64,000 bases of DNA from a virus (IMGVR_UViG_2917802685_000001:1-64000), one strand, 5' to 3'; positions 384 through 58,783 are shown, counted from the stretch's first letter. Made by a program: numbers and translations. The notes: generated by a model from the sequence alone, not told the origin.

Positions 384-417
384 TGTCCGTGGCCGCCCAT
401 CCCGCACCAGTGGGTGA
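384..417 (+). promoter_or_regulatory. Late-gene motif (variant) upstream of tail tube
   Basis: TGTCC at 384 and AGTGGGTGA at 409 (25-nt offset, as at the other sites). Confidence 0.5.
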
Positions 418-441
418 GACCTACGGATGGGGTGGTGAGCA

Positions 442-945
442 ATGCCTGCAGGCAAGGTCCGCGTCACCGGCTCCGGCTACAGCACGTTTGTGTACGCCGG
501 GAAGCCGATCGCGTTCCTCAACTCGGTGGAGGATTCCGGGCAGCGTGCCTGGTCGGACAAGGGGCAGGCGTACAGCTTCATCCAGCCCCTCGGTTCGCGT
601 ACACCGGTTGAGATCGCGACCTCCCGCGTCCTGGGCGGCGGCACGCTGCAGATGACGATCCAGGAGCTGTGGAACCAGGCGATCTGGGAGCAGCTGGCCG
701 GACTGTCCGGCACGAACAACATCGTCGAGATTTTCGACCGGCTGGCCGGAAGTCCGAACTACGTGACGGCGCAGACGATCATCAAGCCGCCGGGCACCGA
801 GGCCAACCCCTCGAAGTGGCGCGGCAAGATCTATCACAACGTGACGATCGTCGACATCGCCGACGGCGACACCCTGACGGTCGGCGGTCTGGACGTCGCC
901 AAGCCTGTGGTCGCCGCGTACACGCACTCCACCCGACTGCGCTGA
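442..945 (+). CDS. Tail tube protein
   Basis: 167 aa, beta-rich, immediately after sheath and before chaperones and tape measure. Confidence 0.7.
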   Translation: MPAGKVRVTGSGYSTFVYAGKPIAFLNSVEDSGQRAWSDKGQAYSFIQPLGSRTPVEIATSRVLGGGTLQMTIQELWNQAIWEQLAGLSGTNNIVEIFDRLAGSPNYVTAQTIIKPPGTEANPSKWRGKIYHNVTIVDIADGDTLTVGGLDVAKPVVAAYTHSTRLR

Positions 946-958
946 CCAGGAGCGAGCG

Positions 959-1474
959 ATGACGGACACCTACGGCACCTTCGACCCTGCCGACCGGCCG
1001 GGCCGCAAGGCCGCCACGCCGGAGGCCAAGCCGACCCTGCAGGCCGAGGACGGTACGGAGCTGCCCAGCTTCGACGAGCGCTACACCGAGGCGTTCGAGG
1101 GGCTCGCCTTCCTCGGCTCGCTGACCGAGAGCTTCTCCTGGCTCGGGCACGAGTTCACCATCCGCACCCTCGGTGTGGACGAGCAGTTGGCGGTCGCTCA
1201 GGTCACCGCCCGGTACAAGGACGGTGGCGAGCAGCTCGCGTACGTCGCGGCCGTGGTGGCCATGGCGATCGTGACGGTCGACGGCGAGGAGCTGCCCACG
1301 CCGATCGGGGAGGACCAGCAGCTGGCCGAGTGGGCGCACCGGCGGTTCGCCTACGTCAAGGCCAACTGGTACCAGCCGACGATCAACCAGGTCTTCCAGC
1401 GCTACCTGGAGCTGGAGGACACGGTCGCTCAGGTCGTCGAGGCCATGGGAAAAGCGTTCGCCCCGGCCGCATAG
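959..1474 (+). CDS. Tail assembly chaperone (gpG-like)
   Basis: Between tube and tape measure; slippery site G GGA AAA at 1447-1453 near its end. Confidence 0.7.
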   Translation: MTDTYGTFDPADRPGRKAATPEAKPTLQAEDGTELPSFDERYTEAFEGLAFLGSLTESFSWLGHEFTIRTLGVDEQLAVAQVTARYKDGGEQLAYVAAVVAMAIVTVDGEELPTPIGEDQQLAEWAHRRFAYVKANWYQPTINQVFQRYLELEDTVAQVVEAMGKAFAPAA

Positions 1475-1884
1475 ATCCGTGGCTGGAGCGCCGTCTGCGG
1501 ATCGCTGAGCGGCGGGGGCTGCTGTCGGGGCGGCACCTGTCTCGGGTGCAGCAGTTCGGTCTTGAGCTGCTCATCCTCGCTGACGGCTGGAAGGCGACCG
1601 ACCAGGACGAGAAGGCGTTCGAGGACCAGCTGAAGTTCGCTCTGGTGGCTGCGGGCGTGGACGCGACCGATCTGTGGCCGAGGGACGCCGCTGACGTCCC
1701 GGACGACGAGGACGTCGACTACGACTACTCCGCCGTCAGCTGGCAGCAGGGCTCGACCGACGACTGGGAGCGCATGCAGCAGGCGCTCTCGACCTCGCGG
1801 GTGCAGGTGTCCGGGGACCAGGAGCCGGAGGACGAGCCGCCGGTGCCGGACATGGACGACGGATTCGATCGGGAGTGGCAGTAA
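1447..1884 (+). CDS. Tail assembly chaperone -1 frameshift extension (gpGT-like)
   Basis: -1 frame open from the GGGAAAA site to TAA at 1884; acidic product; no good start of its own. Confidence 0.7.
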   Translation, partial: GKSVRPGRIDPWLERRLRIAERRGLLSGRHLSRVQQFGLELLILADGWKATDQDEKAFEDQLKFALVAAGVDATDLWPRDAADVPDDEDVDYDYSAVSWQQGSTDDWERMQQALSTSRVQVSGDQEPEDEPPVPDMDDGFDREWQ

Positions 1885-4085
1885 TGGCGACCCCTACGCC
1901 GCCCCCGGGCGGCAGCACTCCGCCGGGCGGCCTCACAGGCGTTCTGCAGTCGGTGGCTATGCAACTGCAGGCCCTGCTGCACCAGAACCAGACGCTGCAG
2001 AACCTGCCGTCGAGCACGGCCAACGCCCTGCGGCAGGCGCGGCAGAACGTGCTGAACCCGACGGCGCTCTTGGGCGGCCAGGTTCCGACGCCGGTCGCGC
2101 CGAACGCGCAGTGGCTGCAACAGACAGCCGCGCAGTTCCTGAGCCAGGTGGTGCTCAACCAGCCGCAGAACCGCCGCTCCGGCTCTGGCGGTCCGACGCC
2201 GCCCGGCCCCACGCCGCCGACCCCTGCGCCGACTCCGGCGACCCCGCTGCCGCCGTACCCGTACCCGTACAGCCCGTACGGCCACCCGCACATGCCGTAC
2301 ACCTACACGGGCCCCATGCCGGGCTACGGCGGCCCCCTTGTCGCGCCGTCACACCCGGGCAGCAGCGGAGGCCACGCCTCGGGCATCGGCTCCTGGACGA
2401 AGTCGATGCTGCCCCGTGTCGGTGCGGCCATCGGCGGCCCCTGGGGCGCCGTGGCAGGCGCCGCCATCGGTGCCGCCACCGACATCCCGGCCGAGGTCCG
2501 CAGCCAGCGCGACAAGAACGCCTACTACCAGTCGATCGAGGGCGGCTCCAACTTCGACGGGTTCGGCGAACGCGCCTCCGAGGAGCTGTACCGCTGGTCG
2601 ACGTTCGGTGTGCTGTCCTCCGATGAGGCCCGTAAGGCGTTCAAGGGCGTCACGAAGCTGGGCTACAACTCCAAGGTGGAGGGGGGCGTCGGCCGCCAGG
2701 ACGCACTGAACTTCATCTACCACGGCAAGACACGTCGCGGTGAGACCGTGGACGAGTCGCTGCAGCAGCTGCAGGTCAACTCCAAGAACGCCCTCGGGTC
2801 GCTCAACGACCTCAGCAACGCCCTGAACGCGGTCTCCGACAGCGCGGGCAAGGCCGGGGTCAACGCGCAGTCAGCGCGTGCCGAGTTCACGCAGCTGATG
2901 GACCAGGCGATCAAGCAGGGCTACGGCTCCTCCTCGGCGGACGTGGCGTCCCTGGAGCAGCAGACGAAGAACTCCTACGGCCGGTCCTACCAGGACGTGG
3001 ACGTCTCCGGGCGCCTGACGCTCAACCACGCCTACATGGCGGCCTCGATGTCCGGGATGAGCGTCTCGCAGTACCTGACGTCCGGCGTCACGTCCAAGGG
3101 CGCCGCCGACGCGAAGCTGGACCAGGCAACGGCAAGCGCCGTGCTCAAGCCCGGCGTCGAGGGCTGGATCAAGGACCAGATCTCCAAGGCCGGTGGCGCG
3201 GGCAATCTCAACGAGGACGTTGTCCAGCAGATCGCCGAGCAGATGATCCGGCAGTTCTACCCCAACGACTCTCCGGCGATGGCGCAGGTCATCGCCGCCA
3301 TCTCCGGGCAGAGCACGCTGGCCAACGATCCGGTCAAGGCCGCCTTCTGGCTCGTGCAGCAGTACAACGACAAGGGCACCGCCGAGACGACGCACAAGAT
3401 GACGGCCAAGGAGAAGGCCGCCCAGAAGACTGCCAGCAAGGAGAACGCGGTCTCCACCGGCGTCGGCAACAACATGCGCCAGACCCAGGACGACCGAGGC
3501 CCGAACGCGGGCAAGTCCATCCTCGGCGACCTGGACAAGGAGAAGTCCGGCGACTTCCTGGGCTTCGGCGGGCACAACTCGGACGCCTACAACGCGTACC
3601 AGAAGTGGCACGACAAGAACGGCGGCCAGGAGGACCCGGTCGTCTACCACCTGCTCGACAAGATCAAGGGTGACGACAAGACGAAGGTCGCCGTCACCAC
3701 GAAGTCGGGCAAGCGGGTGGTGTCGCTGGCCGACGCGATCAAGAACCACCGCAACGAATTGGCGTCCGGCAAGGCCGTCGTCGTCGAGGGCGACCAGGCG
3801 GGCAAGACGGTCTCCGAGATCCTCGGCAAGGACAAGGTCGACCCGCTGCGCGACTTCTCCAAGGAAGCCAAGGGCACCGACAAGTCCGGCGAGACGTACG
3901 CCAAGTGGGAGAAGGAGCACACCACCAAGGACAAGAAGGGCCGGGACAAGCTGGAGGTCACGCTGTCGGCCGAGGCCCGGCGCCTGCTGACCGTCCTGGA
4001 CTCCACCGGCGTGGCCGGGTCCTCCGCGACCGCCACGCCGCCACTGAGCCCGTACGCGTCCAACCCCAGCTACGGCGGGGAGTAG
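1884..4085 (+). CDS. Tape measure protein
   Basis: About 733 aa, Ala/Gly/Gln-rich and helical, follows the chaperones; ATG overlaps the upstream TAA. Confidence 0.6.
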   Translation: MATPTPPPGGSTPPGGLTGVLQSVAMQLQALLHQNQTLQNLPSSTANALRQARQNVLNPTALLGGQVPTPVAPNAQWLQQTAAQFLSQVVLNQPQNRRSGSGGPTPPGPTPPTPAPTPATPLPPYPYPYSPYGHPHMPYTYTGPMPGYGGPLVAPSHPGSSGGHASGIGSWTKSMLPRVGAAIGGPWGAVAGAAIGAATDIPAEVRSQRDKNAYYQSIEGGSNFDGFGERASEELYRWSTFGVLSSDEARKAFKGVTKLGYNSKVEGGVGRQDALNFIYHGKTRRGETVDESLQQLQVNSKNALGSLNDLSNALNAVSDSAGKAGVNAQSARAEFTQLMDQAIKQGYGSSSADVASLEQQTKNSYGRSYQDVDVSGRLTLNHAYMAASMSGMSVSQYLTSGVTSKGAADAKLDQATASAVLKPGVEGWIKDQISKAGGAGNLNEDVVQQIAEQMIRQFYPNDSPAMAQVIAAISGQSTLANDPVKAAFWLVQQYNDKGTAETTHKMTAKEKAAQKTASKENAVSTGVGNNMRQTQDDRGPNAGKSILGDLDKEKSGDFLGFGGHNSDAYNAYQKWHDKNGGQEDPVVYHLLDKIKGDDKTKVAVTTKSGKRVVSLADAIKNHRNELASGKAVVVEGDQAGKTVSEILGKDKVDPLRDFSKEAKGTDKSGETYAKWEKEHTTKDKKGRDKLEVTLSAEARRLLTVLDSTGVAGSSATATPPLSPYASNPSYGGE

Positions 4086-4088
4086 ACC

Positions 4089-4972: not shown

Positions 4973-4975
4973 GCC

Positions 4976-5638
4976 ATGGCCGACACCCGCAAGGGCCTGA
5001 ACTGCCTGCTGTTCTACCCCAAGGACAGCAAGACCAACGCCAGCTTCCGGGTCCGCGCCGACGTCCTCGGGCACGGCATGACGATGGTCGCCGACTCCTC
5101 CAGCTCCCGTAACGCCCGCGCGTACTACCCGCACCGGCCGACCCCGTCACGCTTCTACCTTCGGGTGCTGCTCAAGGGGTACAGCGAGCGCAAGGCGTTC
5201 GCCGACTGGATGCAGGGTTACGCCAACTTCGTGATGAACCCGGGCCTGGCCGCCGGTGACTCCTTCCCCGACATGGGGGTCATGCTCGCGAACCGGAACT
5301 TCTACCGCGAGGGCGTGCCCCTGTCCGGCTTCGAGTGGGGCGACACCATCGGCACTGTCGTCTGGACGCCGGTCATCACCTTCGAGTGCACCCGCGAGCC
5401 CCAGGACGTCACAGCGCTCTCCGCGAGCAGCTTCAAGAACGCCCAGGACCCCGAGATGAAGTACTTCTGGCCCATGGGCACGCAGCTCGGCGGCAACGCG
5501 GTCCCGTCCGGCAACTACCAGACCGTCGACCCCGGCAAGGACGGCGGCTCCGACCCGGGCCAGCTGGAGGACCTCCCGGTCAACCCGATGCCCAACGAGG
5601 GCACCCCGCCGAACGAGCGGTACGACTACGGGAACTGA
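4976..5638 (+). CDS. Hypothetical baseplate/tail protein
   Basis: 220 aa, GAGGAGG RBS, within the tail operon. Confidence 0.6.
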   Translation: MADTRKGLNCLLFYPKDSKTNASFRVRADVLGHGMTMVADSSSSRNARAYYPHRPTPSRFYLRVLLKGYSERKAFADWMQGYANFVMNPGLAAGDSFPDMGVMLANRNFYREGVPLSGFEWGDTIGTVVWTPVITFECTREPQDVTALSASSFKNAQDPEMKYFWPMGTQLGGNAVPSGNYQTVDPGKDGGSDPGQLEDLPVNPMPNEGTPPNERYDYGN

Positions 5639-5679
5639 GCGGCCCGCCCCGGGTAGAGCAATCAGCACGGGCGGGCCGC
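5639..5679 (+). terminator. Hairpin, putative terminator
   Basis: GCGGCCCGCCC 5639-5649 pairs with GGGCGGGCCGC 5669-5679. Confidence 0.5.
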
Positions 5680-5715
5680 CATGGGTGCGATGCGTGGTCA
5701 GCGTAGTTGTGCTCG

Positions 5716-5759
5716 TGTCCCTGTGTCTGCCACTCGCCCCAAGGGGCGGAGGTGGTCTC
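5716..5759 (+). promoter_or_regulatory. Late-gene motif with RBS-occluding hairpin
   Basis: TGTCC at 5716, AAGGGGCGG at 5741. Confidence 0.55.
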
Positions 5760-8246
5760 GTGCCGAACTTCGTCCTGGCCCCGGGCGTGAAGGTCTACAT
5801 CGCGACGGAGAAGCACGGGATCATCGACGTCTCGGACGACCTGGTCGAGGGCTCGATGACGCGCCGCTCGGACGGCGTCAGTTCTTTCAACTTCAGTCTG
5901 CAGAACGCCCGCCGGAAGTACGACGGCGTGCTGACCCCGAACGACCGCATCTCGGTGCAGATGAAGCGGTTGAAGTGGGTGCAGGTGTTCACCGGCTACC
6001 TGAACAAGGTGCCGCTCGTGACGGCGTGGCCGCGTGTCGTCCACCTGACCTCGTCCTGCTCGCTCAAGCGGCTGCAGTACTGGTACTGGGACTCCCACAC
6101 CGAAGCGTCGCAGTCCATGGTGCGCGATGCCCTGGTGGACGCGAACAAGGACACCGGGGTCTCCGACGGTGGCATGACGAACGTCGCGCTCACTGTGCTG
6201 AAGAAGGTGGTGGGCTGGCCGGAGTCCAAGGCCCACATCGCCCGCATCCCGAACAACTGGTTCTCGGTCATCGAGGTCCTGGCCAAGCAGATCGACGCCC
6301 AGCTCACCGGCGCCGACGAGATCGCGCGAGCCCTGCTGGATCAGCTCGGTACCGCGTCCGTCGGCGGCACGAGCGGCGCGGACGCCAGCTCGCTGAACGG
6401 AACGTACGGCGGCTTCAACAACCCGGACCAGAAGGCCAACGCCGCGATCATCTACAACGTCGGCAAGGAGAAGGGCGGCTCCACCCGCGACTGCATCATC
6501 GCCATCATGACGGCGATGCAGGAGTCCGGCCTGCGGAACCTCAAGGGCGGTGACCGGGACAGTGCGGGCCTGTTCCAGCAGCGCCCCTCCCAGGGCTGGG
6601 GCACCCACGAGCAGGTGACCGACCCCCGGTACGCGGCTGGGAAGTTCTTCGACGCCCTCTTCAAGGTCACGAACCGCAACAGCATGGAGCTGTGGAAGGT
6701 CTGCGACACCGTCCAGCGCTCCGGCGCGCCGCACGAGTACGCCAAGCACGAGAAGCCCGCCACGGCCATGGTCAGGGACCTGGAGAAGGGTGGGGGCAAG
6801 CTGGACTCCAAGACGAAGCCGCAGGGCACCATCTCCGGCGTCGACCTGGCCCAGCTCTCGGTGAACTTCTGCCAGAAGTACCCGAACATTCCGTACACGC
6901 AGCAGTACGGCGGCACCCAGATGGGCGTGCTGTCGCAGAACCCTCCGCCCGGCCTGGACTGCTCCAGCTTCGTGCAGGCCATGTACCTGCGCGCCCTGGG
7001 CTCGTTGTACGACCTGCCGCGCGTGGCAAACGCGCAGTACGGCGTGTGCAAGAAGGTGACGGTGGCGAAGGCCCTGGCGACGCCGGGCGCACTGGTCTTC
7101 AAGGGCTCCTCGCCGGGCGGCATCTACCACGTGGAGATGAGCCTGGGCGACGGCAAGAGCACGGTCGGCGCGCACCGCGCTGGAGCCAAGCCGCACGACG
7201 TCGGCATCAACCCGCCGTCGGCGCCGTCGTACTGGGACTACGGCGGCTTCCTGCCGCGCGTCGCGTACACCACCGGCGCGGGCACGGTCATCTTCGATGG
7301 GTCGGACGGCACCAGCGGCGGCGTCAACGACATGAGCGGTGACCCGGGGGTCGAGCTGGCCACCGGCGCTGATGCGCCCGGGTACAACCCCAAGGACCCG
7401 TTCGACAAGATGTTTGGCGACAACGCGTGGATGCCGATCTCCACGGCGCAGAACGACCCGAACTACGCGCTGGCGCAGTCCCTGGCCGGTCCGCGAGCGC
7501 TGCTGAACGACCAGCCCCTGCTGCCGTACCTGAAGAACCTGTTCAACTCGTCGATGCGGTCGTTCTGCTCCGCGCCGAACGGCGACCTGATCGCCTGGTA
7601 CCCGGACTACTACGGGATGTGGGGCACGGCCGCCAAGATGGTCATCCAGCCCATCGAGGTGCAGGACTTCGAGGTGTCCTGGTCGGACGACTACATGGTC
7701 ACCCACCAGTTCGTGGTCACGTCGCCGGTCAGCGGGAACCTCTTCGACCCGGCCACGGGGACCGTGCAGCAGTCCATCTCCGACAGCTACCTGTCCCAGT
7801 ACGCCCTCTTCACCACCGGCATCGTCACCATCGACTTCCCGGGCGTGTGGAAGGCGCTGTTCGGGATGGACAAGACAGACAAGCAGGCGAAGGCGTACGC
7901 GGACTGGATCAAGCAGCGGTTCGGCGCCCGGCCGGACTACCAGCAGATGCCAGCCCTCATCGGCCCGAAGGCCGCACTGTTCTCGGCGATCTTCCTCTTC
8001 ATGCGGCAGTTCGCCTTCCAGTACCAGGCCAACATCCCGCTGACGTTCATGCCGGAGCTGTGGCCGGGGATGCTGCTGCAGTTCCCCGCCTTCAACTTCC
8101 AGGGCTACGTGACCACGGTCCAGCACGACTTCAAGTTCGGCGAGGGCGGCTACTTCAAGACCTCGGTGCAGATCGCGGCCCCGGCCCGGCTCACCGGCGA
8201 CAAGGACAAGCGGCTGCTCGGCCTGCCGATGGCGGGAGGCAACTGA
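5760..8246 (+). CDS. Baseplate hub protein with lytic transglycosylase-like and NlpC/P60 domains
   Basis: GTG at 5760 after GGAGG; AMQESGLRNL..GDRDSAGLFQQRPSQGWG (lysozyme-like); GLDCSSFV...YHV (NlpC/P60 Cys-His). Confidence 0.8.
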   Translation: MPNFVLAPGVKVYIATEKHGIIDVSDDLVEGSMTRRSDGVSSFNFSLQNARRKYDGVLTPNDRISVQMKRLKWVQVFTGYLNKVPLVTAWPRVVHLTSSCSLKRLQYWYWDSHTEASQSMVRDALVDANKDTGVSDGGMTNVALTVLKKVVGWPESKAHIARIPNNWFSVIEVLAKQIDAQLTGADEIARALLDQLGTASVGGTSGADASSLNGTYGGFNNPDQKANAAIIYNVGKEKGGSTRDCIIAIMTAMQESGLRNLKGGDRDSAGLFQQRPSQGWGTHEQVTDPRYAAGKFFDALFKVTNRNSMELWKVCDTVQRSGAPHEYAKHEKPATAMVRDLEKGGGKLDSKTKPQGTISGVDLAQLSVNFCQKYPNIPYTQQYGGTQMGVLSQNPPPGLDCSSFVQAMYLRALGSLYDLPRVANAQYGVCKKVTVAKALATPGALVFKGSSPGGIYHVEMSLGDGKSTVGAHRAGAKPHDVGINPPSAPSYWDYGGFLPRVAYTTGAGTVIFDGSDGTSGGVNDMSGDPGVELATGADAPGYNPKDPFDKMFGDNAWMPISTAQNDPNYALAQSLAGPRALLNDQPLLPYLKNLFNSSMRSFCSAPNGDLIAWYPDYYGMWGTAAKMVIQPIEVQDFEVSWSDDYMVTHQFVVTSPVSGNLFDPATGTVQQSISDSYLSQYALFTTGIVTIDFPGVWKALFGMDKTDKQAKAYADWIKQRFGARPDYQQMPALIGPKAALFSAIFLFMRQFAFQYQANIPLTFMPELWPGMLLQFPAFNFQGYVTTVQHDFKFGEGGYFKTSVQIAAPARLTGDKDKRLLGLPMAGGN

Positions 8247-8482: not shown

Positions 8483-8486
8483 AAAA

Positions 8487-10282: not shown

Positions 10283-10357
10283 GCTCTCAGCTCCTAGGCG
10301 GGGTTGTCGGGGCCTATCTTGCCGCATGATCGGCACCTGTTTCGTCGTTTGGAGCCG

Positions 10358-10402
10358 TGTTCGAGCAATGTGCCGCGCCCGCAAGGGGTGAGGAGGTGGC
10401 TC
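10358..10402 (+). promoter_or_regulatory. Late-gene motif upstream of gp25
   Basis: TGTTC at 10358, AAGGGGTGA at 10383. Confidence 0.6.
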
Positions 10403-10838: not shown

Positions 10839-10891
10839 TGTGCGGCGCCTCCCTCTCGCCCTCAAGGGGTGACGAGAAGGAGGGCGCCGCA
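10839..10891 (+). promoter_or_regulatory. Late-gene motif with RBS-occluding hairpin
   Basis: TGTGC at 10839, AAGGGGTGA at 10864; arms 10841-10858/10873-10891. Confidence 0.7.
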
Positions 10892-12741
10892 TGGGTGTTT
10901 CCAGGGACGACATCGTCTCGCAGATGCGGGATGCGCTGCTGGTCTCCGACCCGGAGCTGGACACGTCCATCGGCACCCCGGCGCGGAAGATCCTGGACGC
11001 GGTCTCCGCGTCGCTGGCGGACGCGTACGTGGAGAACCACCTGCTGTCGTACGCCTACGACATCGACAGTAAGACCGACGCCGACCTGGACTCCTTCTGC
11101 CAGCTGTTCGGCATCGCGCGGATCGCGGCCCGGCGCTCGGTCGGAACGGTGACCTTCTCCCGGACCGGCGACCTGACCCCGACGGTGTTCATCCCGGTCG
11201 GCACGGAGATCGCGTCCTCGTCGAACTCCTCGATCGTGGTCACCACGGTGGTCGGCGGCACGCTGATGCCGGGCGCCTCCTCGGTCACGGTGCCGGTCCA
11301 GGCCGTGACGGCCGGGCCCGAGGGCAACCTGGGCGCCGGGATGGCTACCCAGATCACCTCCCCGATCCAGGGTGTCAACACCGTCACCAACACGGCGGCC
11401 CTGACCGCTGGCATGTCGCGGGAGACCGACTCGGAGCTGCGGACCCGCTGGAAGTCCACGGTGTTCCGGTCGCTGGCCGGGACGGAGCAGATGTACCGAG
11501 GCGTCGCACTGGACGACGGCGACTGCTACGCGGTGTCCGTCGTCGGCTCCTCGCGGACGCGGTCGGAGATCCTGCAGGTGCCCGTCAGCGGCAACACGGT
11601 CTGCCAGATCACGGACGCCCGCTACATCTACTCCTCGCCGGTGCAGGTGACGAAGTCCGACGGCACGCCGCTGATCAAGGACTACGACTACACCTGGGTT
11701 CCGGCGAACCCGCCCCAGATCGCGGGGTTGTCGGCGTCGTTCCCTGCGGCCGGTGAGCTGCTCACGGTGGCGTACCAGTACCTGCCGGTGGTGAGCCGGA
11801 ACGACCCGGCGAACAACATCACAAACAGAGTGGACCTCTTCGTCGGCGGCACCCGGGCGCAGTCGGCGCAGACGGCGCTGGTGTTCAAGCAGAGCAAGGT
11901 GTTTCAGACCGTCTCGACGCTGGACCTGTACACCGGGGCATGGCTGCGGTCGGACCAGACGCGGCCGGTCGCCAGCAACGTGTTCGTGCCGCTGCCGTTC
12001 GGGCCGATCGTGACCGTGCCGTCCACGCTGTCGGTCGCGGGGACGACATACGGCCTGGCGTCCACGGCGCACCCGCTGGGCACGGTGGCCAACGGCGTGA
12101 CGTACGCCTACACGGTCGTCCACGAGGACACGGTGGACGGCTGGACGCCGACCTCGCGGTTCGGCCTGGAGTGGCACCACACCTACCTGCCCGCCGACGG
12201 CTCGCCGATCTCCGTGGGTGGCAACGGCGACTACACCTACAACGAGGTGCCGTCCTCGGTCCAGGATGCGGTCAACCGGTGGAGGTTGACCGGCATCGAC
12301 GCCAAGGTGCACCAGGCCAAGCAGCGCTGGCTCCGGTTCTCGCTGGGCGTGATGTACACGGTGTCGTCCACCGGGTCGGTTGACTCGGTCCAGGAAGCCA
12401 TCCGGTCCGCCTTGAGTGACTACCTGAACCGGATGGACTTCAACAGCAACGTCCAGATCAGCGACGTCCTCGCGGTCATCCACCAGGTGCCCGGCGTGGA
12501 CAACTGCCGCCTGCTCAATGGCGCGGACGTGACCGGCTACAGCTCGGCCAACCCGAACGCGTCGATCGTGGGCGTCCAGCAGATCGCCCCGAACTCGGCC
12601 CCGAACTCGGCCGCGCTGTCCTCCTACGTCGATGCGCCGACCGGCCGGGCCAAGGACATCTACTTCCGCGACGACGAACTGCCCGTGCTCGGCGGCGTGG
12701 TCTTCAAGACCCTCGCCCGGAACTCCTTCGGGGTGCTGTGA
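10891..12741 (+). CDS. Baseplate J-like protein
   Basis: GTVTF, VQAVTAGPEGN and GMSRETDSELRTR motifs; C-terminal QVPGVDN. Confidence 0.85.
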   Translation: MGVSRDDIVSQMRDALLVSDPELDTSIGTPARKILDAVSASLADAYVENHLLSYAYDIDSKTDADLDSFCQLFGIARIAARRSVGTVTFSRTGDLTPTVFIPVGTEIASSSNSSIVVTTVVGGTLMPGASSVTVPVQAVTAGPEGNLGAGMATQITSPIQGVNTVTNTAALTAGMSRETDSELRTRWKSTVFRSLAGTEQMYRGVALDDGDCYAVSVVGSSRTRSEILQVPVSGNTVCQITDARYIYSSPVQVTKSDGTPLIKDYDYTWVPANPPQIAGLSASFPAAGELLTVAYQYLPVVSRNDPANNITNRVDLFVGGTRAQSAQTALVFKQSKVFQTVSTLDLYTGAWLRSDQTRPVASNVFVPLPFGPIVTVPSTLSVAGTTYGLASTAHPLGTVANGVTYAYTVVHEDTVDGWTPTSRFGLEWHHTYLPADGSPISVGGNGDYTYNEVPSSVQDAVNRWRLTGIDAKVHQAKQRWLRFSLGVMYTVSSTGSVDSVQEAIRSALSDYLNRMDFNSNVQISDVLAVIHQVPGVDNCRLLNGADVTGYSSANPNASIVGVQQIAPNSAPNSAALSSYVDAPTGRAKDIYFRDDELPVLGGVVFKTLARNSFGVL

Positions 12742-14078: not shown

Positions 14079-14127
14079 TGTCCGGTCCTCCTCAGCCGCC
14101 CTCAAGGGGTGAGCTGAGGAGGACCGG
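14079..14127 (+). promoter_or_regulatory. Late-gene motif inside a perfect 15-bp RBS-occluding inverted repeat
   Basis: TGTCC at 14079, AAGGGGTGA at 14104; CCGGTCCTCCTCAGC 14082-14096 / GCTGAGGAGGACCGG 14113-14127. Confidence 0.75.
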
Positions 14128-19152: not shown

Positions 19153-19199
19153 TGTGCCACGCCTCCCTTGTGACCGAAGGGGTGACGAGGGAGGCGAAG
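19153..19199 (+). promoter_or_regulatory. Late-gene motif with RBS-occluding hairpin
   Basis: TGTGC at 19153, AAGGGGTGA at 19177; GCCTCCCT/AGGGAGGC arms. Confidence 0.65.
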
Positions 19200-20812
19200 T
19201 GGCGCGAGCACACGTGATGCGGCCGATCACCGGCGAGACAGGCGACCTGCTGTACGGCGCGCAGGTCACCGTGCGCGAGGCCGGGCAGTCGGTGAAGGTG
19301 GCCCAGCCGCTGTACGCGGGGCCCACCGGCAACGATCAGCTGACGAATCCGTTCGTCACCGCCAACGGCGTGATCGACTTCTGGATGGACGAGCCGCAGC
19401 GTGTGTCCGTCCTGGTCGAGAAGGACGGCTTCTCCGACATCCTGGTCTACCTCGACGGGCCGCCGCCGCCGGAGGAGACTGCTCGCACCGACAGCCCGCT
19501 GTTGATCGTCGGCAAGCAGGTGCCCGGCAACGTGCTGCTGGCCGGTGACACCCCGGGCCAGGCCGTATGGGGTCCGGTCCCGGCCAACTCCGGCGTCACG
19601 CCGAGGGTGACCGTCATCAACGAGGACTTCGACCTCGCCCGCGACCCGGCAGGATGGTCGTTCACTCAGGCCGCGACCAGCACCCGCGACTACCCGGCCG
19701 AGGCGCCCACCGACTGGGGCCTCACCCGGTCCCTGCACGCCAGGCACACGGGCAACGCAGCCGACCTCGTCGTCCTCACGCCGGGCTTCACCCTCGCCGA
19801 GGCAGGCTTCGTCTCGCTGTGGGTACGGCCGACCCTGGCCACCGGCGAGAGCGTCATCATCGCGGCCACCACGCAGGGCGGCACGAAGACCGTCCTGGAG
19901 ACGATCACCCAGACCCGGCCGTGGGGCTTCTACCGCTACCCGCTGGCCGCTGGCACCTACCAGTCCGTCTCCGTCGAGTTCAAGGGCGCGGCCACCTTCG
20001 TCGCGGGCACCGGCCACGAGGCATGGATGACCGGCCTGCAGGTCATGTACGGAGGCACGGTCCCCGCGCACACCCACGCCGGGTCCGGCACCGGGTCGGT
20101 AGCACTGGGCGCGAACTCGAACGCCTCAGGCCTGAACTCCATCGCCGTCGGCACCTGGGCACAGGCGTGGTACACCAACGCCACGGCCTTCGGTAACGGC
20201 TCGAACGCCACGGCCATAGACACCGTTGCTGTGGGCCCCAGCGCCAAGGCGGTCTCCCAGAATGCGGTCGCCGTGGGCGCGCGTGCCACCGGTTCGCTGG
20301 CCAGCACTGGCTGGACGGCCGTCGGCGCGGACGCTTACGTCGACTCCACCGACGGCACGGCGATCGGCCGCCAGGCCAAGGCGTACGGCTCCGCCGGTAC
20401 CGCCATCGGCACCACCGCCTACGTCGGCCCCGGCGCCACCAACGCCGTGGCGATCGGCAAGAACGCGCAGGCCCTGGCTCCCGCCGCGCTGGCCCTGGGC
20501 GCCAACACCGTCGTGGCCGCCACCCACAACGGCTCCTCGGCCATCGGCGACGCCTCCAAGACCAGCGCGGCCCAGCAGACCACGTTCGGTAACCCCGACT
20601 ACCCGTTCAACGCGGTCGTCGTGGTGAACAAGCTGTACGCCCTCACGACGGTCAACATCGGCACGGATGCCACCAGTCGACTGGGTTTCTTCGGCGCGGA
20701 GGGCACCGTCAAGCCGACCGTGACCGGCTCCGACGGCGGCAACCTCGCGCTGCGCAACCTGATCTCTGCGCTGGCCGGACTGGGCCTGCTGACCAACAAC
20801 ACCACGGCCTGA
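19199..20812 (+). CDS. Tail fibre with YadA-head-like repeats
   Basis: GTG at 19199 after GGAGG; N-terminus paralogous to 18321; many AxAxG repeats. Confidence 0.65.
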   Translation: MARAHVMRPITGETGDLLYGAQVTVREAGQSVKVAQPLYAGPTGNDQLTNPFVTANGVIDFWMDEPQRVSVLVEKDGFSDILVYLDGPPPPEETARTDSPLLIVGKQVPGNVLLAGDTPGQAVWGPVPANSGVTPRVTVINEDFDLARDPAGWSFTQAATSTRDYPAEAPTDWGLTRSLHARHTGNAADLVVLTPGFTLAEAGFVSLWVRPTLATGESVIIAATTQGGTKTVLETITQTRPWGFYRYPLAAGTYQSVSVEFKGAATFVAGTGHEAWMTGLQVMYGGTVPAHTHAGSGTGSVALGANSNASGLNSIAVGTWAQAWYTNATAFGNGSNATAIDTVAVGPSAKAVSQNAVAVGARATGSLASTGWTAVGADAYVDSTDGTAIGRQAKAYGSAGTAIGTTAYVGPGATNAVAIGKNAQALAPAALALGANTVVAATHNGSSAIGDASKTSAAQQTTFGNPDYPFNAVVVVNKLYALTTVNIGTDATSRLGFFGAEGTVKPTVTGSDGGNLALRNLISALAGLGLLTNNTTA

Positions 20813-39394: not shown

Positions 39395-39551
39395 GTGCCC
39401 TCCCGGCGTCCACTCGATGTTCGACTTCTGCCCCGGCGACTGCACCGAGCCCCTGGAAGACGTGGTACGCCACACCGTGGACGGCGTGGTGTACCTCTGC
39501 TACCCCGACGACCACTACTGTCCTCCCGGCTCCCTGCCACCCAAGGAGTGA
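39387..39551 (+). CDS. 54-aa Cys/His-rich hypothetical protein (not in ORF track)
   Basis: AGGAG at 39376, GTG at 39387, MAECPPGVHSMFDFCPGDC..., TGA at 39549-39551. Confidence 0.45.
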   Translation: MAECPPGVHSMFDFCPGDCTEPLEDVVRHTVDGVVYLCYPDDHYCPPGSLPPKE

Positions 39552-39560
39552 CCCAGGGAG
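39519..39560 (+). promoter_or_regulatory. Late-gene motif with RBS-occluding hairpin inside the replication operon
   Basis: TGTCC at 39519, AAGGAGTGA at 39543; CTCCCTG 39530-39536 / CAGGGAG 39554-39560. Confidence 0.6.
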
Positions 39561-39566
39561 GCACGT

Positions 39567-39713
39567 ATGCTCAAGTTCGGCACCGGCACGATTACCGCCG
39601 TCGCGAAGGACACCGAAGAGGGCCAGCTGGTCCGCACCGCCGTGGCACTCACCGAGACGGAGCGCGCGGGCATCCTCGCCGAGGGCGAGGAGACGGACAG
39701 CGAGGGGGAGTAG
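39567..39713 (+). CDS. 48-aa acidic protein (not in ORF track), probably late-expressed
   Basis: GGGAGG RBS; MLKFGTGTITAVAKDTEEGQLVRTAVALTETERAGILAEGEETDSEGE. Confidence 0.6.
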   Translation: MLKFGTGTITAVAKDTEEGQLVRTAVALTETERAGILAEGEETDSEGE

Positions 39714-51743: not shown

Positions 51744-52136
51744 ATGACCATTGACGTGCGCGTGCTCCGGGAACTGTTCCGGCATCTCCAGGCGTGGAAC
51801 ACCCTCTATGAAACGGAGGGTATGGACACGATAACTGGCCCGGACGGTACCGAGTACTGCATCCACGACATCGTCCACCTCTACAAGAACGCCGTCGAAA
51901 GACGCGGCGAAAACGGAAAGCACCTGCTTTCCCCCCGCCAGCGCGAAGCAATTCAGCTGTTCCTCATCGAGAACCGGCCCGAGCGGGAAGTCGCCCGCCT
52001 CATGGGCGTCTCCGAGGACAACCCCGTCGCCTCCTACGCCACCCAGGGCCTCGTCCGCCTCAACGAGCTGATCAAGGCAGGCGTCATCCCCGGCAACGGC
52101 AGCGCCGACGAGGGGCTGGAGGTCGCGGCAGCATGA
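51744..52136 (+). CDS. Sigma-70 region-4-like HTH protein
   Basis: LSPRQREAIQLFLIENRPEREVARLMGVS; no region 2 recognised. Confidence 0.7.
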   Translation: MTIDVRVLRELFRHLQAWNTLYETEGMDTITGPDGTEYCIHDIVHLYKNAVERRGENGKHLLSPRQREAIQLFLIENRPEREVARLMGVSEDNPVASYATQGLVRLNELIKAGVIPGNGSADEGLEVAAA

Positions 52137-52426
52137 GCGACCGCATCCGCAACGGCATCGACGCCGACCTCGAAGCCCAGGCCGACGCGATCTTGCGCCA
52201 GTCCTTCCTCGACAACCCCGATCCCGAGGAAAAGGCCAAGATCCTCACGCCCTACATGCTGCAGAACCGGCTCAAGCGCGAGGTCTTCGTGCCCGGCGGC
52301 ACCCCCGACGGAGCCGTCCGCAAGGGCAGCTTCCACCGGGCCATCAACCGCCAGCACCCCCACCTCAACGCAGCAGAGGGCGTCGCCCGGCCGCAGCACC
52401 GAGTCCCGCTGAAGGCCGAAGAGTGA
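52133..52426 (+). CDS. Hypothetical protein
   Basis: 97 aa, ATGA overlap. Confidence 0.6.
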   Translation: MSDRIRNGIDADLEAQADAILRQSFLDNPDPEEKAKILTPYMLQNRLKREVFVPGGTPDGAVRKGSFHRAINRQHPHLNAAEGVARPQHRVPLKAEE

Positions 52427-53070
52427 GCGACAACCTGCCCGAGGTCCTCGACCCTGACGCCTCCGGCCCGGTCAGCATGGTCATGGTGCGCGTCGGCAAC
52501 CGGACCGTGCCCGCCAAGACCGGCTCCCGCTGCCGCGTCTGCCAGTCCCCCCACCGCGCCCAGATCGAGGCATGGATCCTGGAGGGCTACACCCGGCCCA
52601 CCATCCTCGCCTGGCTCAAGGACATGGAGGAAGGCCCCCTCGGCCACCCCACCGAGAAGGCCCTGCGCAGCCACACCGACCGCCACCTCCCGCTCGGCGC
52701 CCGCGCCGAGGCCGCCATCCTGGAGCGCCGGACCGAAGCGCTCGGCGAGGAGATAGAAAAATTTGGCGGCCGTGTCGCAGACCATCTCACCGCCCTGGAT
52801 ATGGTCGTTCTGAAGGGCTTCCAGGCCCTCCAGGAAGGCAACATCAAGCTCGGCGCCTCCGACCTCATGAAGGCCATCGACCTCAAGCAGAAGATCGACG
52901 CTTCTGTCGAGGGCGGGCTGGACGACAAGAAGTGGCGCGGAATCCTCATGGAGTACATGAAGATAGCCGTCGAGTTCATCCCGCCAGAGAACCGACAGGC
53001 TTTCGCAAGAGCCCTCAGCCAAAGCCCAGTACTCACCGCGCTGTCACAAAGCAATCAGCAACAAATGTAA
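52423..53070 (+). CDS. Zn-ribbon/HTH protein (possible small terminase or regulator)
   Basis: CRVC...H..RH followed by a helical domain. Confidence 0.5.
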   Translation: MSDNLPEVLDPDASGPVSMVMVRVGNRTVPAKTGSRCRVCQSPHRAQIEAWILEGYTRPTILAWLKDMEEGPLGHPTEKALRSHTDRHLPLGARAEAAILERRTEALGEEIEKFGGRVADHLTALDMVVLKGFQALQEGNIKLGASDLMKAIDLKQKIDASVEGGLDDKKWRGILMEYMKIAVEFIPPENRQAFARALSQSPVLTALSQSNQQQM

Positions 53071-54231: not shown

Positions 54232-54786
54232 ATGACCGAGAACCTGCGCCAGCGAGACGGCGACCAGCCGCTGCCCACCGAGGGCCAGGAGAACGTCCAG
54301 GACGCCCTGATCGAGCGCATCAAGGAGCGCCGCGCGCTGGGCATCCAGCGCTACGGCCGCCCGCTGCAGACCTTCAACGGCCGCAACGCCGTACGCGATG
54401 CCCTCGAAGAGGCCCTCGACCTCTCCACCTACCTCATGCAGGTCGAGATGGAGCAGAAGGCCGTACAGGCACGGATCAGGCATGCACTGACGCTGCACGT
54501 CTCCGGCCTCAGCGGACTGTGCCTCACCTGCAAGTCGGCGGCCCCCTGTGCCACCCGAGAGGCCCTCACCAGCTCGCGGCCCGCACTCAAGGTCACCATC
54601 ATCGAGCCTTCCGAGGAACTCGTCTGCTCGCCGGACGCCGTGGAGGAGATCCGGCGCCAGTTCGGCGTCACCGAGGAACAGACCGGCCTGACCGGCATAG
54701 GCAGCCTGATGGGCTTCCCCGTCTTCGTGGATGACGAACTTCCGCCAGGCACTGTCCGCCTGCAGCCCAGCACCCCCAAGAAGTAA
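54232..54786 (+). CDS. All-alpha NTP pyrophosphohydrolase-like protein
   Basis: RRALGIQRYGRPL...DALEEALDLSTYL. Confidence 0.5.
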   Translation: MTENLRQRDGDQPLPTEGQENVQDALIERIKERRALGIQRYGRPLQTFNGRNAVRDALEEALDLSTYLMQVEMEQKAVQARIRHALTLHVSGLSGLCLTCKSAAPCATREALTSSRPALKVTIIEPSEELVCSPDAVEEIRRQFGVTEEQTGLTGIGSLMGFPVFVDDELPPGTVRLQPSTPKK

Positions 54787-54817
54787 CCACCCCCTCTCCT
54801 TCCGCCAGAGGAGCACC

Positions 54818-55297
54818 ATGACCGCCAGCAACCCGTCCGGCCTGATCCTGCCGCCGGGCGTCCAGTCCTCCAGCCCGTTCGGGCCCGCCGCCGACCGCTT
54901 CGACAAGGAGTACGGCGGCGTCCACCAGCGCAGCGAGCTGGCCCAGGGCGACATCCTCGACAGCGAGATCCTTGCGCTGGAGGCGATCTTCAAGGACATG
55001 CAGGACCGCTACGGCGTCCGCTCCTTCAACGTCACGGAGTTCGAGCGCGAGGCCAAGGACCGCTGCCACGACCAGCTCGGCCTCGCCATCGACATCCGCT
55101 GGAAGGCCCTCGCCGACGGCACCGGCCGCATCATCGAGGGCGCCGCCAGCCCCGAGATCGAGATCGTCGGCCGCGTCCAGAAGAAGGCGTTCGACCACGA
55201 CCACAAGGTCCACGAGGTCACCCGCGACATCCTCGACCTCGGCACCCAGGGCGTCATCGCCTCCGAGGAGCCCGCGCGCGGAGGACACCCCCACTGA
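54818..55297 (+). CDS. Hypothetical protein
   Basis: ATG at 54818 after AGGAG. Confidence 0.65.
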   Translation: MTASNPSGLILPPGVQSSSPFGPAADRFDKEYGGVHQRSELAQGDILDSEILALEAIFKDMQDRYGVRSFNVTEFEREAKDRCHDQLGLAIDIRWKALADGTGRIIEGAASPEIEIVGRVQKKAFDHDHKVHEVTRDILDLGTQGVIASEEPARGGHPH

Positions 55298-55700: not shown

Positions 55701-55739
55701 ATCCATTTTTCCATTGAACCGTTGAAGGAGAACACCGCC

Positions 55740-56213: not shown

Positions 56214-56220
56214 CGGTCGC

Positions 56221-56269
56221 TGTCCCACCGGCGCCCTCCCGCCCCAGAAGGGGTGAGGAGGGCGCCGCC
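56221..56269 (+). promoter_or_regulatory. Late-gene motif with 11-bp RBS-occluding inverted repeat
   Basis: TGTCC at 56221, AAGGGGTGA at 56248; CGGCGCCCTCC 56229-56239 / GGAGGGCGCCG 56257-56267. Confidence 0.65.
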
Positions 56270-58471
56270 ATGATCAGCAAGAACAACGAGGACACCTCGC
56301 CCCTGGCGAACTTTGATCCCACGGAGATTCACCAGCTGTTCCTGGGATTGGAGGTGCCCGATCCGATTACGTTCGTGGTCTCGCCGAGGTATCTGAACCG
56401 GCCAAACCTCTACCCGCGCCAGGCCACCCTCATGAAGGTGTTCTTCCTGCGCGAGGACCTCTTCACCGACTACGACTACCGGGTCGTCGCCGAGTGGGAC
56501 GAGTCCTACCGCACCGCCAAGTCCTCCAACGAACAGCGGGCCGCGCGCGCCGCTGAACTCGCCGAGACCAGCCCCGAAGCCGCCCTCGAAGCCGAGGTCG
56601 ACGGCATCATGACCGAGGCCCTCGACGCCATCGCCGCCCAGGCCCTGCTGGAGGGCAACGAGGACGCCCCCAAGATGCCCCTGTCCGGCTCCCCGGACCT
56701 CCTGGGCCGCATGCGCGCCTGCAAGGCTCTCGGCTACAGCTGGTTCAAAGAGATCCTCCTGGTCATGGGCCGCCGCGCAGGCAAGGGCCACATCAGCGCC
56801 CTGGCCATGGCCTACGTCCTGTGGTGCTACATGGCCAAGGGCGACCCCCAGGAGTTCTACGGCGTCGACCGCGACAAGAAGCTCGCCGTGCTGATCTTCG
56901 CCGGTAAGCGCGACCAGGCCAAACAGAACCTGTGGCGCGACCTCGTCAACGTCGTCACCGGCGGCCCGTGTTTCGCCCCCTACATCGCCGACAGCCTCGG
57001 CGAGAAGCTCTCCGTCTACGCGCCGAACGACTTCGTCCGCATGGAAGACATGCGCAAGCGCGGCATCAAGACCGCCATGGACATGGCCACCTTCCACATC
57101 CTGCCCAAGGAATCCACCGTCATGGCGGGCCGTGGCCCGGCCTCCATGATCCTCGGCTTCGACGAGATGGCCCACGTCGTCAACAGCGGCGCCAACCGCT
57201 CCGCCGGAGAGGTCTACGACGCCTCCACCCCCTCCCTCGACCAGTTCGGCAGAGACGGCTTCATCGTCGAGCCCAGCTCGCCGTGGGAGATGAGCGGCAA
57301 GTTCTACGACAACTGGCTGCGCGCCACCAGCTACGAGGACGACGGCACCCCCACCTACGCGAACGTCATGATGATCCAGCTCCCCAGCTGGGACGTCTAC
57401 CTCGACTGGCAGATCGCCCACGAACTGCCCCTCTTCCCCGAGGGCTTCACCGGCGACAACGGCGAGTACGCCGACTGCGACCCGCCCGGCTTCAAGCCCC
57501 TCAAGGGCGCCATCCAGAACTTCGACGAAGAGATGCGCAAGCTGGAGAAGGCCGACCCCGACACCTTCGCCGTCGAGCGCCGCGCCCAGTGGGCCACCGT
57601 CCTGGACGCCTACCTCAATCCGGACAAGGTCGAATCCGTCTTCGGCCCCTGGCACGAGCGCCCCGTCGAATACGGCAGCCCGCTCATCCTGCCCACCACC
57701 CAGGGCATCCTCGCCTACACCTACAAGGGCCACGCCGACCCCAGCTCCGTCAACTGCCGCTTCGGCGTCGCCCTCGCCCACACAGAGATCGACGCCGAGG
57801 GCCGCCCCCACGTCGTCTTCGACAAGATCCACTACTTCGATCCGGCCGACTTCCCGAACCACACCATCGACTACGAGGAAGTCGAGGACTGGATCTGGCA
57901 CGACATGATCGTCCCCTTCAGCCCCGACGACTTCACCTTCGACCAGTACCAGTCGGTCGGATCCATCCAGTCACTCGTCAAGCGGACCGCCAAGACGCGC
58001 CTGCCCAAGAAGGTCAACATCTGGGAGCGCACCGCCACCAACCAGATCAACTGGCGCTACGCCGAGACCTTCAAGGCCGCGATCAACATGGGCCTGGTCC
58101 ACGCGCCCGAGCACGAAGAGGGCATGCTGGAGCTGAAGTTCCTCCAGAAGAAGCCCGGCATCAACCGCGTCGATCACCCCACCATCGGTCCCGTCCAGAC
58201 CAAGGACATCGCCGATGCGATCATGATCACAACGTTCGCGCTCATCGGTGACTGGATCGAGGGCTACAAGGAGATGCTCAACGGCGCCAGGCCCGCTGGC
58301 GCCATGGTGGGTGGCCTGCACGGATCCAGCGCCCGCACCCCCGACATGGCCATGCCTGACCAGGACACACAGGCCCGCCTGAACGCCCTGCGCAGCTTCA
58401 CCCGCACCCGTACAGGACGCCAGGGCTGGGATCAAGGCCTCGGCCGCACAAGGTCCGGATATCGCCGCTGA
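56270..58471 (+). CDS. terL: Terminase large subunit
   Basis: YPRQ, MGRRAGKG (Walker A), ILGFDEMAH (Walker B), SSP; nuclease HADPS, TFDQY, KDIADA. Confidence 0.85.
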   Translation: MISKNNEDTSPLANFDPTEIHQLFLGLEVPDPITFVVSPRYLNRPNLYPRQATLMKVFFLREDLFTDYDYRVVAEWDESYRTAKSSNEQRAARAAELAETSPEAALEAEVDGIMTEALDAIAAQALLEGNEDAPKMPLSGSPDLLGRMRACKALGYSWFKEILLVMGRRAGKGHISALAMAYVLWCYMAKGDPQEFYGVDRDKKLAVLIFAGKRDQAKQNLWRDLVNVVTGGPCFAPYIADSLGEKLSVYAPNDFVRMEDMRKRGIKTAMDMATFHILPKESTVMAGRGPASMILGFDEMAHVVNSGANRSAGEVYDASTPSLDQFGRDGFIVEPSSPWEMSGKFYDNWLRATSYEDDGTPTYANVMMIQLPSWDVYLDWQIAHELPLFPEGFTGDNGEYADCDPPGFKPLKGAIQNFDEEMRKLEKADPDTFAVERRAQWATVLDAYLNPDKVESVFGPWHERPVEYGSPLILPTTQGILAYTYKGHADPSSVNCRFGVALAHTEIDAEGRPHVVFDKIHYFDPADFPNHTIDYEEVEDWIWHDMIVPFSPDDFTFDQYQSVGSIQSLVKRTAKTRLPKKVNIWERTATNQINWRYAETFKAAINMGLVHAPEHEEGMLELKFLQKKPGINRVDHPTIGPVQTKDIADAIMITTFALIGDWIEGYKEMLNGARPAGAMVGGLHGSSARTPDMAMPDQDTQARLNALRSFTRTRTGRQGWDQGLGRTRSGYRR

Positions 58472-58522
58472 CCTGGAATGGCTGCCTTGCCCACGAGGAA
58501 AACTCCGTGGCACGATGGCGTC

Positions 58523-58691
58523 GTCTCGTGAATGGGTTGCAGCCAGGGGTCCTTTCGGCCCGGGAACAACTGCAGCTGGCAGGCGTGCCTCAACGTGCCA
58601 CCCGGCGCCAGACCGATCAGGTCGGCCGGATGGCGCCGGGGTGTGGTGGAGTCTGGCGGGACTGACCACTACTTAAAACGTCTCACGAGAC
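58523..58691 (+). ncRNA. Candidate ~170-nt multi-stem structured RNA (strand not proven)
   Basis: TTGCCC-N18-CACGAT promoter-like site at 58487-58516; closing stem GTCTCGTGA/TCACGAGAC; four internal helices; downstream hairpin. Confidence 0.55.
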
Positions 58692-58698
58692 ACGAGAT

Positions 58699-58730
58699 GC
58701 CCCCCGGACAGGTACCGCCGGGGGGCTCTC
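58699..58730 (+). terminator. Hairpin after the candidate ncRNA
   Basis: GCCCCCCGG 58699-58707 / CCGGGGGGC 58718-58726. Confidence 0.55.
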
Positions 58731-58739
58731 CCATTCCCA

Positions 58740-58783
58740 TGTCCACCAGCTCTTCACCGACGTGAAGGGCTGGAGGTGCAGGG
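58740..58783 (+). promoter_or_regulatory. Late-gene motif (variant) with hairpin over the RBS
   Basis: TGTCC at 58740, AAGGGCTGG at 58765; CCAGCTCTTCA/TGAAGGGCTGG arms. Confidence 0.55.

Follow-up and report, generated by a model that had tools for sequence, protein, structure and literature searches.

The window analysed here, a 64,000-nucleotide (nt) stretch of viral DNA (IMGVR_UViG_2917802685_000001:1-64000), matches exactly bases 1-64000 of plasmid pRLB1-9.1 from Streptomyces sp. RLB1-9, a circular molecule of 154,158 bp (NZ_CP041653.1). pRLB1-9.1 carries a full myovirus gene set (baseplate J, HK97-fold capsid protein, terminase) together with parA and a replication module, and is therefore a myovirus-like phage-plasmid. 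Its terminase is ~30% identical to the terminases of Bxz1-type mycobacteriophages and of Rhodococcus phage E3. In the literature that mentions strain RLB1-9 we found work on conjugation and genome flux, and nothing on the regulation of pRLB1-9.1. A two-box motif recurs on the + strand of this element ahead of its late genes, and at part of its sites it is built into a hairpin that covers the ribosome-binding site of the next gene. A preliminary description, made from the window alone, had located nine copies by the positions of an upstream TGT and a downstream AAG set 25, 24 or 27 nt apart, and had placed eight of them before virion, terminase or polyvalent genes. All nine coordinate pairs and offsets proved correct, and the placement of the eight holds. 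The sites are given below with their scores from a two-block position weight matrix (PWM) and with folding z-scores, which were calculated from dinucleotide-preserving shuffles; SD denotes the Shine-Dalgarno sequence.

384..417, + strand: site 1, TGTCC-N20-AGTGGGTGA, 24.3 bits, before a virion structural gene (442-945); pairing of 388-408 with 425-444 is weak and no better than in shuffles (z -0.10)
5716..5749, + strand: site 2, TGTCC-N20-AAGGGGCGG, 25.0 bits, before an NlpC/P60 virion protein gene (5760-8246), with the SD immediately next to the box; folding is limited to an apical stem (CGCCCC/GGGGCG), and the lock is found in no relative (group mean z -0.25)
10358..10391, + strand: site 3, 27.1 bits, in the divergent gap after parA (- strand) and before a baseplate gene (10403-10831); no hairpin (group mean z -0.02), spacer hypervariable in 15 relatives
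10839..10893 (motif 10839-10872), + strand: site 4, 33.0 bits, before the baseplate J gene (10891-12741), the upstream gene stopping 8 nt ahead of TGT; hairpin arms 10839-10855/10874-10893 cover the SD and ATG (z -3.56)
14079..14127 (motif 14079-14112), + strand: site 5, 33.3 bits, before the gene for a 1394-aa tail protein; perfect 15-bp stem 14082-14096/14113-14127 over the SD (z -5.52), with arms that differ in relatives
19153..19207 (motif 19153-19185), + strand: site 6, 27.1 bits, before gene 19199-20812; hairpin arms 19153-19170/19186-19207 cover the SD and GTG (z -8.27)
39519..39563, + strand: site 7, TGTCC-N19-AAGGAGTGA, 26.2 bits, before a small gene (39567-39713) and a J-domain gene; weak anti-SD pairing (z -0.50); kept in closer relatives only
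56221..56276 (motif 56221-56256), + strand: site 8, 27.9 bits, before the large terminase gene (56270-58471); hairpin arms 56221-56239/56257-56276 cover the SD and ATG (z -7.58) and covary in relatives
58740..58780, + strand: site 9, TGTCC-N20-AAGGGCTGG, 18.6 bits, before a polyvalent protein gene (58784-61471); the stem pairs chiefly spacer with box, not spacer with SD (z -3.49), and the site is kept in relatives

The motif has the consensus (G)CTGTC[CT]-N19-22-(C)AAGGGGYGR, with a 3′ box that is typically AAGGGGTGA. This box is exact at five of the nine window sites and deviates at 409 (AGTGGGTGA), 5741 (AAGGGGCGG), 39543 (AAGGAGTGA) and 58765 (AAGGGCTGG). At 39543-39551 the TGA of the box is also the stop codon of a 54-codon gene (39387-39551), making this motif copy partly coding. 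Taken alone, the 3′ box is not enriched in the window (8 found versus 10.4 expected, allowing one mismatch and counting both strands), and enrichment far beyond chance is confined to the bipartite, strand-specific form. Throughout the plasmid, AAGGGGTGA occurs 11 times on the + strand and never on the - strand. All 16 copies of AAGGGG[TC]G[AG] on the + strand have TGT 24-26 nt upstream, which adds ten sites outside the window and defines the 5′ box as (G)CTGTC[CT]. The preliminary description had written this box as TGT(C/G/T)C; the TGT is indeed present at all sites, and the longer form describes them better.

The PWM, run over both strands of the whole plasmid at a cut-off of at least 18 bits, returned 25 sites, all of them on the + strand. 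With a single exception, at 129504 inside gene 128087-131122 (18.0 bits in one tally, 16.2 in listings), they lie in gene junctions, 19-63 nt ahead of annotated + strand start codons. The sites are concentrated in the virion module, which extends from 118-154 kb through the record origin to 20 kb, and the remainder precede terminase, a polyvalent protein and a few other genes. Motif discovery on upstream regions, suggested as a check in the preliminary description, recovered the same dyad: by unbiased k-mer and dyad enrichment, CTGT-N22/23-AAGGG was the top gapped dyad.

Using baseplate J, terminase and J-domain protein queries we collected relatives at more than 50 loci (44-99% protein identity), which come from ~150-kb elements in Streptomyces genomes and from soil viromes. 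The same PWM found 93 sites on the gene strand of these relatives and 0 on the other, and five whole relatives held 44 pattern matches versus 0 with a reversed control. The motif is kept down to 44% baseplate J identity. At orthologous sites TGT and the box stay at constant spacing around a hypervariable spacer, most clearly in the group of site 10358, where 15 distinct spacers were seen. In four complete or draft host genomes a strict form of the pattern occurs 10, 7, 8 and 10 times on the element contig (150 kb), versus 1, 0, 1 and 2 times in the remaining 8-10 Mb. The motif is thus rare in host DNA outside the element, and is therefore not a host regulon. The two most distant relatives (G002 and G003) show, in most of their motif copies, an extra, conserved CTGAGC ~7-12 nt before the box; their form is TGTC-N9-CTGAGCCC-N3-GAAGGGGTGR, and this third element is absent from the window's lineage.

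We assigned the sites to junction classes from the record's annotation. Three junctions are divergent, with the site lying after opposite-strand genes (10358, 71164 and 138821); none has a significant hairpin, and the motif is the only conserved signal in them. The gene downstream of a divergent junction needs a promoter of its own. In 10250-10420, the sole junction scanned for it, we found no sigma-70-type promoter (TTGACA-like and TATAAT-like elements 16-18 bp apart). The 3′ box itself lacks TANNNT, and so does not have the form of a housekeeping sigma-70-type promoter. The parA operon (8568-10282, - strand) is an antisense insertion within the virion module and the motif copy at 10358 directly follows it. 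As a putative promoter, this copy would restart late transcription after the antisense operon.

A second class comprises gaps of 52-82 nt between the stop codon of a co-directional gene and TGT. All six of those tested hold a separate, strong terminator-like hairpin in this interval:

302..383, + strand: a pair of strong terminator-like hairpins, after the upstream stop codon and ahead of site 1 (minimum free energy -67.2, z -7.4)
5639..5715, + strand: terminator-like hairpins in the gap that separates gene 4976-5638 from site 2 (z -3.0)
132875-132934, 144001-144077, 147911-147962 and 151411-151463 (plasmid coordinates): terminator-like hairpins of the other long gaps

Judged as intrinsic terminators (a GC-rich hairpin with a T-run behind it), these long-gap hairpins had part of the expected features, as in GGGCCC...GGGCCCTTTTGC before 144078. 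In some of them a terminal T-run continues directly into TTGCTGT, which flanks the 5′ box. Hairpins at compact junctions, where a co-directional upstream gene ends less than 20 nt before TGT, did not pass as intrinsic terminators in the same test, being followed by the start codon and coding sequence with no T-run. It is at these compact junctions that folding of the motif itself is strongest, with a mean z of -4.5 (n = 11) versus -1.3 at all other sites (n = 12; Mann-Whitney p = 0.002).

Folding is significant at five of the nine window sites (10839, 14079, 19153, 56221 and 58740; z -3.49 to -8.27), and at four of these five, 58740 being the other, the ribosome-binding site is covered. No significant fold was found at 384, 5716, 10358 and 39519 (z -0.10 to -1.04). 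The preliminary description had proposed that the spacer and the downstream SD region are reverse complements of each other at most sites. The two perfect complements that it quoted were confirmed, with 15 bp at 14082/14113 and with 11 bp at 56229/56257, and a significant hairpin over the ribosome-binding site forms at 10839, 14079, 19153 and 56221. Extending the relation to most sites was an overstatement, as four sites do not fold significantly and the stem at 58740 is mainly one of spacer with box. Over the plasmid, about half of 23 sites have a stable hairpin that covers the ribosome-binding site. The mean z was -2.6 at motif sites versus +0.16 at 57 non-motif upstream regions (p = 1e-5), and the predicted accessibility from SD to AUG was 0.35 versus 0.50 for the same comparison (p = 4e-4). 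Predicted accessibility at the motif sites was 0.30 for read-through RNA and rose to 0.51 when the RNA was taken to begin behind the box. The box itself is base-paired with a C-rich pre-box in the majority of folds, so that the hairpin is a single long helix closed by a loop of 3-5 nt. At sites with a long leader (131939, 133315 and 139514), the 5′ arm bypasses nearer sequence and pairs with the SD and start codon, which favours masking of the ribosome site. Rfam 15 gave no matches at gathering score in the window.

To follow the hairpins through the relatives we used z-scores for each orthologue, together with a chimera test of cognate and non-cognate arms, in place of RNAalifold. In the groups of sites 10839, 14079 and 19153 every relative has a significant hairpin (mean z -3.4 to -4.4), whereas the arm sequences, and sometimes the register, differ among relatives. 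The groups of 5716 and 10358 have a hairpin in no relative. Cognate 5′ and 3′ halves were 6-8 kcal/mol more stable than non-cognate ones in groups 14079 and 19153 (permutation p < 2e-4), and cognate arms were also favoured in group 10839 (p = 0.01). At the large terminase site, compensatory versions of the stem occur (GCGCC/GGCGC, GTGCC/GGCAC and GCACC/GGTGC). Together these comparisons are good but, because independent lineages are few, not overwhelming evidence that the hairpins are selected and that their arms co-evolve.

We suggest, with a probability of roughly 0.6, that the two-box motif is the late promoter of this phage-plasmid family, and that its hairpins at compact junctions mask the ribosome-binding site from read-through RNA. 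A promoter is preferred to an RNA element because the boxes keep a fixed spacing around a free spacer, the orientation is strict, the motif is specific to the element, and it is placed after terminator-like hairpins and in divergent junctions. The non-housekeeping late promoter of the preliminary description is thereby supported, though by inference only. Host RNA polymerase would read the motif with an element-encoded specificity factor. At AAGGGGTGAGGAGGTGG (10383) the SD directly abuts the box, and at motif sites it never overlaps it, which fits a transcription start at or just after the final purine of the box. We place the probable transcription start at the 3′ box or immediately behind it; the promoter's own mRNA would then begin a few bases before the SD. 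The late genes would then form many short units, with a terminator-like hairpin ahead of the promoter where there is room for one. If fewer than 20 nt separate the end of the upstream gene from the promoter, the spacer would have evolved to pair with the leader, SD and start codon. Read-through RNA, carrying both arms, would fold and hide the ribosome site, and would possibly be stopped or cut, while promoter-started RNA lacking the 5′ arm would be translated. The hairpins would act on RNA arriving from upstream because only such RNA holds both arms. Termination or RNase III processing of the read-through RNA may coexist with masking. The preliminary description had gone further, to a systematic translation lock; co-evolving arms and a more deeply buried ribosome site indicate that the hairpins are selected, but hairpins are present at only about half of the sites, mainly those at compact junctions. 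A translation lock is plausible there, although the hairpins may instead terminate the read-through RNA or lead to its processing.

Several findings weigh against this reading. The 3′ box resembles no known -10 element, and an offset of 25 bp is long for a plain -35/-10 pair. A significant hairpin is found at only about half of the motif sites, and the strong hairpins at 125861 and 152872 leave the SD uncovered. Column-wise covariation in RNAalifold is weak at orthologous sites, which we attribute to arms shifting register between lineages. In two relatives the compact-junction rule was only a trend (p = 0.07), in a noisy test with a crude GC3 gene caller that miscalled high-GC antisense open reading frames (ORFs) as genes. 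The protein that we consider as a possible reader of the motif (51744-52136, described below) is without sigma region 2, both by Pfam and in its AlphaFold (AF2) model, and its structural matches are weak by E-value.

The uncovered SDs at 125861 and 152872 would be expected if the motif were a late promoter whose compact hairpins act chiefly on the upstream gene's transcript, by terminating it, stabilising it or marking it for RNase III cleavage. Covering of the ribosome-binding site would then be a by-product, the promoter spacer and the leader of the next gene being the only free sequence around the promoter. Long gaps do hold a terminator-like hairpin at the same relative place, some with a T-run, and compact hairpins occur exactly where room for a separate hairpin is missing. 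The stems are near-perfect duplexes of 15-25 bp, and RNase III cuts duplexes of this size. We nonetheless think this account unlikely: compact hairpins are followed by a start codon and coding sequence rather than a T-run, the 5′ arm still targets the SD and start codon over the nearest sequence when the leader is long, and accessibility of the SD is specifically lowered. Coupling to translation of the upstream gene, in which a terminating ribosome melts the hairpin, was considered and rejected. With the stop codon of that gene 4-11 nt before the stem, a terminating ribosome would be expected to melt no more than the first pairs of the helix, which is 15-25 bp long.

Co-evolving arms would also suit a motif that acts in RNA: the hairpin would gate the true SD of a polycistronic late mRNA, and the box on it would be either a standby site for ribosomes or a loop bound by a protein. 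The box is SD-like; it sits at the hairpin top or close to it, and the real SD follows shortly afterwards. The full complement of the 16S rRNA 3′ end is AAGGAGGUGA, from which the box, AAGGGGUGA, differs only by lacking one A. Such a role appears improbable, as TGT keeps its fixed linear distance with or without a hairpin, the box is mostly paired with the C-rich pre-box instead of free, the motif stands at places that call for a promoter (divergent junctions, and directly behind terminator-like hairpins), and the window has no Rfam match. More improbable still, in our view, is that the motif is an operator for an element-encoded DNA-binding regulator, be it a repressor or roadblock in the plasmid state or an activator, with the promoters lying elsewhere. 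An operator could well be element-specific and repeated, and the element encodes several helix-turn-helix (HTH) proteins (GerE-like, XRE-like, WhiB-like and sigma region 4-like). Yet the motif is asymmetric and strictly gene-oriented, with 0 of 25 sites on the other strand, the interval from the upstream stop codon to the SD is too short in compact junctions to fit a further promoter, and the divergent gap 10250-10420 has no sigma-70-type promoter. An N4-type promoter formed by a DNA hairpin was set aside, half of the sites being without a hairpin.

If the motif is a late promoter, the element may encode the factor that reads it. We identified one lead:

51744..52136, + strand: candidate specificity factor (low confidence), 130 aa, with a C-terminal half resembling region 4 of extracytoplasmic function (ECF) sigma factors, the domain that binds the -35 element

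The protein is conserved in all relatives and has a Pfam match to Sigma70_r4_2 only. In an AF2 model (pLDDT 86) its ~70 C-terminal residues match ECF sigma region 4, with Foldseek probabilities of 0.97-0.99 and E-values of only 0.1-0.4. Searches of Pfam, PHROGs and Atlas revealed no region-2-like partner among its neighbours. This region 4-like protein could read CTGTC, which we offer as a lead only; it might equally belong to the packaging module. The neighbouring gene 52423-53070 may encode a small terminase. Other candidate readers are GerE-like (35899-36138), XRE-like (45878-46516) and WhiB-like (37436-38008). Cluster C1 mycobacteriophages have weak counterparts, in syntenic position, of both the protein at 51744-52136 and the DUF7236 protein next to it (gp210-gp211 in Cali). 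In the window the pair (51744-52426) follows a Holliday-junction resolvase gene, in synteny with Cali gp208-gp211, and this appears to be a conserved core block of Bxz1-like actinophages. A further-reaching version of the promoter reading is conceivable, though we put it at clearly less than even odds. The whole family of Streptomyces phage-plasmids would share an undescribed promoter class, read by a split or minimal sigma-like factor (a region-4-only protein for CTGTC and a partner for AAGGGGTGA), and every late unit would be insulated by either a terminator or a promoter hairpin masking the ribosome-binding site. If true, an occasional T4 trick would become a systematic silencing of virion genes during plasmid life.

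In phage T4 the gene soc has such a design, with a late promoter nested in a hairpin. For T4 genes e (lysozyme) and I-TevI, nesting of the late promoter in a hairpin that sequesters the ribosome-binding site was shown experimentally (Uzan and Miller 2010, PMC3014915). The geometry here would be like that at e and I-TevI, given the start site that we propose: the 5′ arm of the hairpin over the ribosome-binding site is the spacer between the two boxes, and so would be specified by the DNA of the putative promoter itself. T4 transcripts from upstream fold and are poorly translated and those from the nested promoter are without the 5′ arm; the same is predicted from sequence for pRLB1-9.1. The T4 promoter is TATAAATA, read by gp55/gp33, whereas here the motif is bipartite and GC-rich, and T4 uses the design at few genes, whereas here it would apply to about half of ~25 late promoters, following the compact-junction rule.

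Phage-encoded sigma-like factors read the late promoters of T4 (gp55/gp33; PMC2988020), SPO1 (gp33/34) and phiEco32 (gp36; PMC12276001). Like those promoters, the motif has a phage-specific consensus that is absent from host promoters and repeated before virion genes. The consensus is unrelated to theirs, and only the 130-aa sigma region 4-like protein, with no complete sigma-like gene, was recognised here. The nearest described actinophage analogue is the start-associated sequence (SAS) and its extended form (ESAS), repeats of Cluster K mycobacteriophages whose function is unproven (Pope et al. 2011, PMC3203893). These too are short, oriented, phage-specific repeats upstream of gene starts, about half of them with an inverted repeat. 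Their anatomy is different: SAS (GGGATAGGAGCCC) contains the SD and the ESAS arms are conserved, whereas the present motif combines a box distinct from the SD with another box 25 bp further upstream, and each hairpin has its own co-evolving arms. ECF41 and ECF42 promoters have a TGTC-type -35 element. The motif shares with them a TGTC-containing upstream element, and its candidate reader resembles ECF sigma region 4. It differs from them in a downstream element unlike CGTC, in a longer spacing and in a candidate reader that lacks sigma region 2. Literature searches with the box sequence and for Streptomyces or actinophage late promoters returned nothing relevant. The mechanism is thus of a known kind, and its consensus, its reader and its rule-based use are undescribed in the literature searched.

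Control of late genes in large actinophages and phage-plasmids is essentially unmapped, and the motif supplies ~25 precisely placed candidate late promoters per genome, as well as an element-specific consensus usable to find the factor that reads it. If confirmed, the design rule (a terminator ahead of the promoter, or a promoter folded into a hairpin that masks the ribosome-binding site) would explain how an element resting quietly in the plasmid state avoids leaky synthesis of virion proteins, and it would provide tightly insulated, factor-dependent expression parts for Streptomyces engineering. The link between the hairpin lock and silencing during plasmid carriage is speculation.

Neither Rhodococcus phage E3 nor mycobacteriophage Cali was found to have this late dyad. 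E3 has six copies of TCAAT[AT]GG before structural genes and 0 on the other strand, and in two of the six (36561 and 44542) TGTC lies exactly 25 nt upstream. This repeat may be a diverged cousin of the motif, a resemblance that is suggestive only. Cali shows only early-type promoters (GGGAATGA-N14-16-GTTATACT; ~15 intergenic copies followed by CA-rich leaders). With E3 suggestive at most and Cali early-type only, the motif can therefore not be extended to either phage.

Within the window one further copy scored below the cut-off:

54753..54786, + strand: weak candidate site, TGTCC-N20-AAGAAGTAA, 15.0 bits, before gene 54818-55297; no hairpin

The upstream regions of the plasmid also hold other signals. 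The 8-mer TAGAGTGG occurs 17 times on the + strand of the whole plasmid and 0 times on the - strand, mostly beyond the window at 65-118 kb, and is enriched in upstream regions together with GCAA-N14/15-GAGTG. Judged by this pattern, it is a separate, early-type putative promoter regulon, distinct from the late motif. The heptamer CCCGCCA is likewise enriched in upstream regions.

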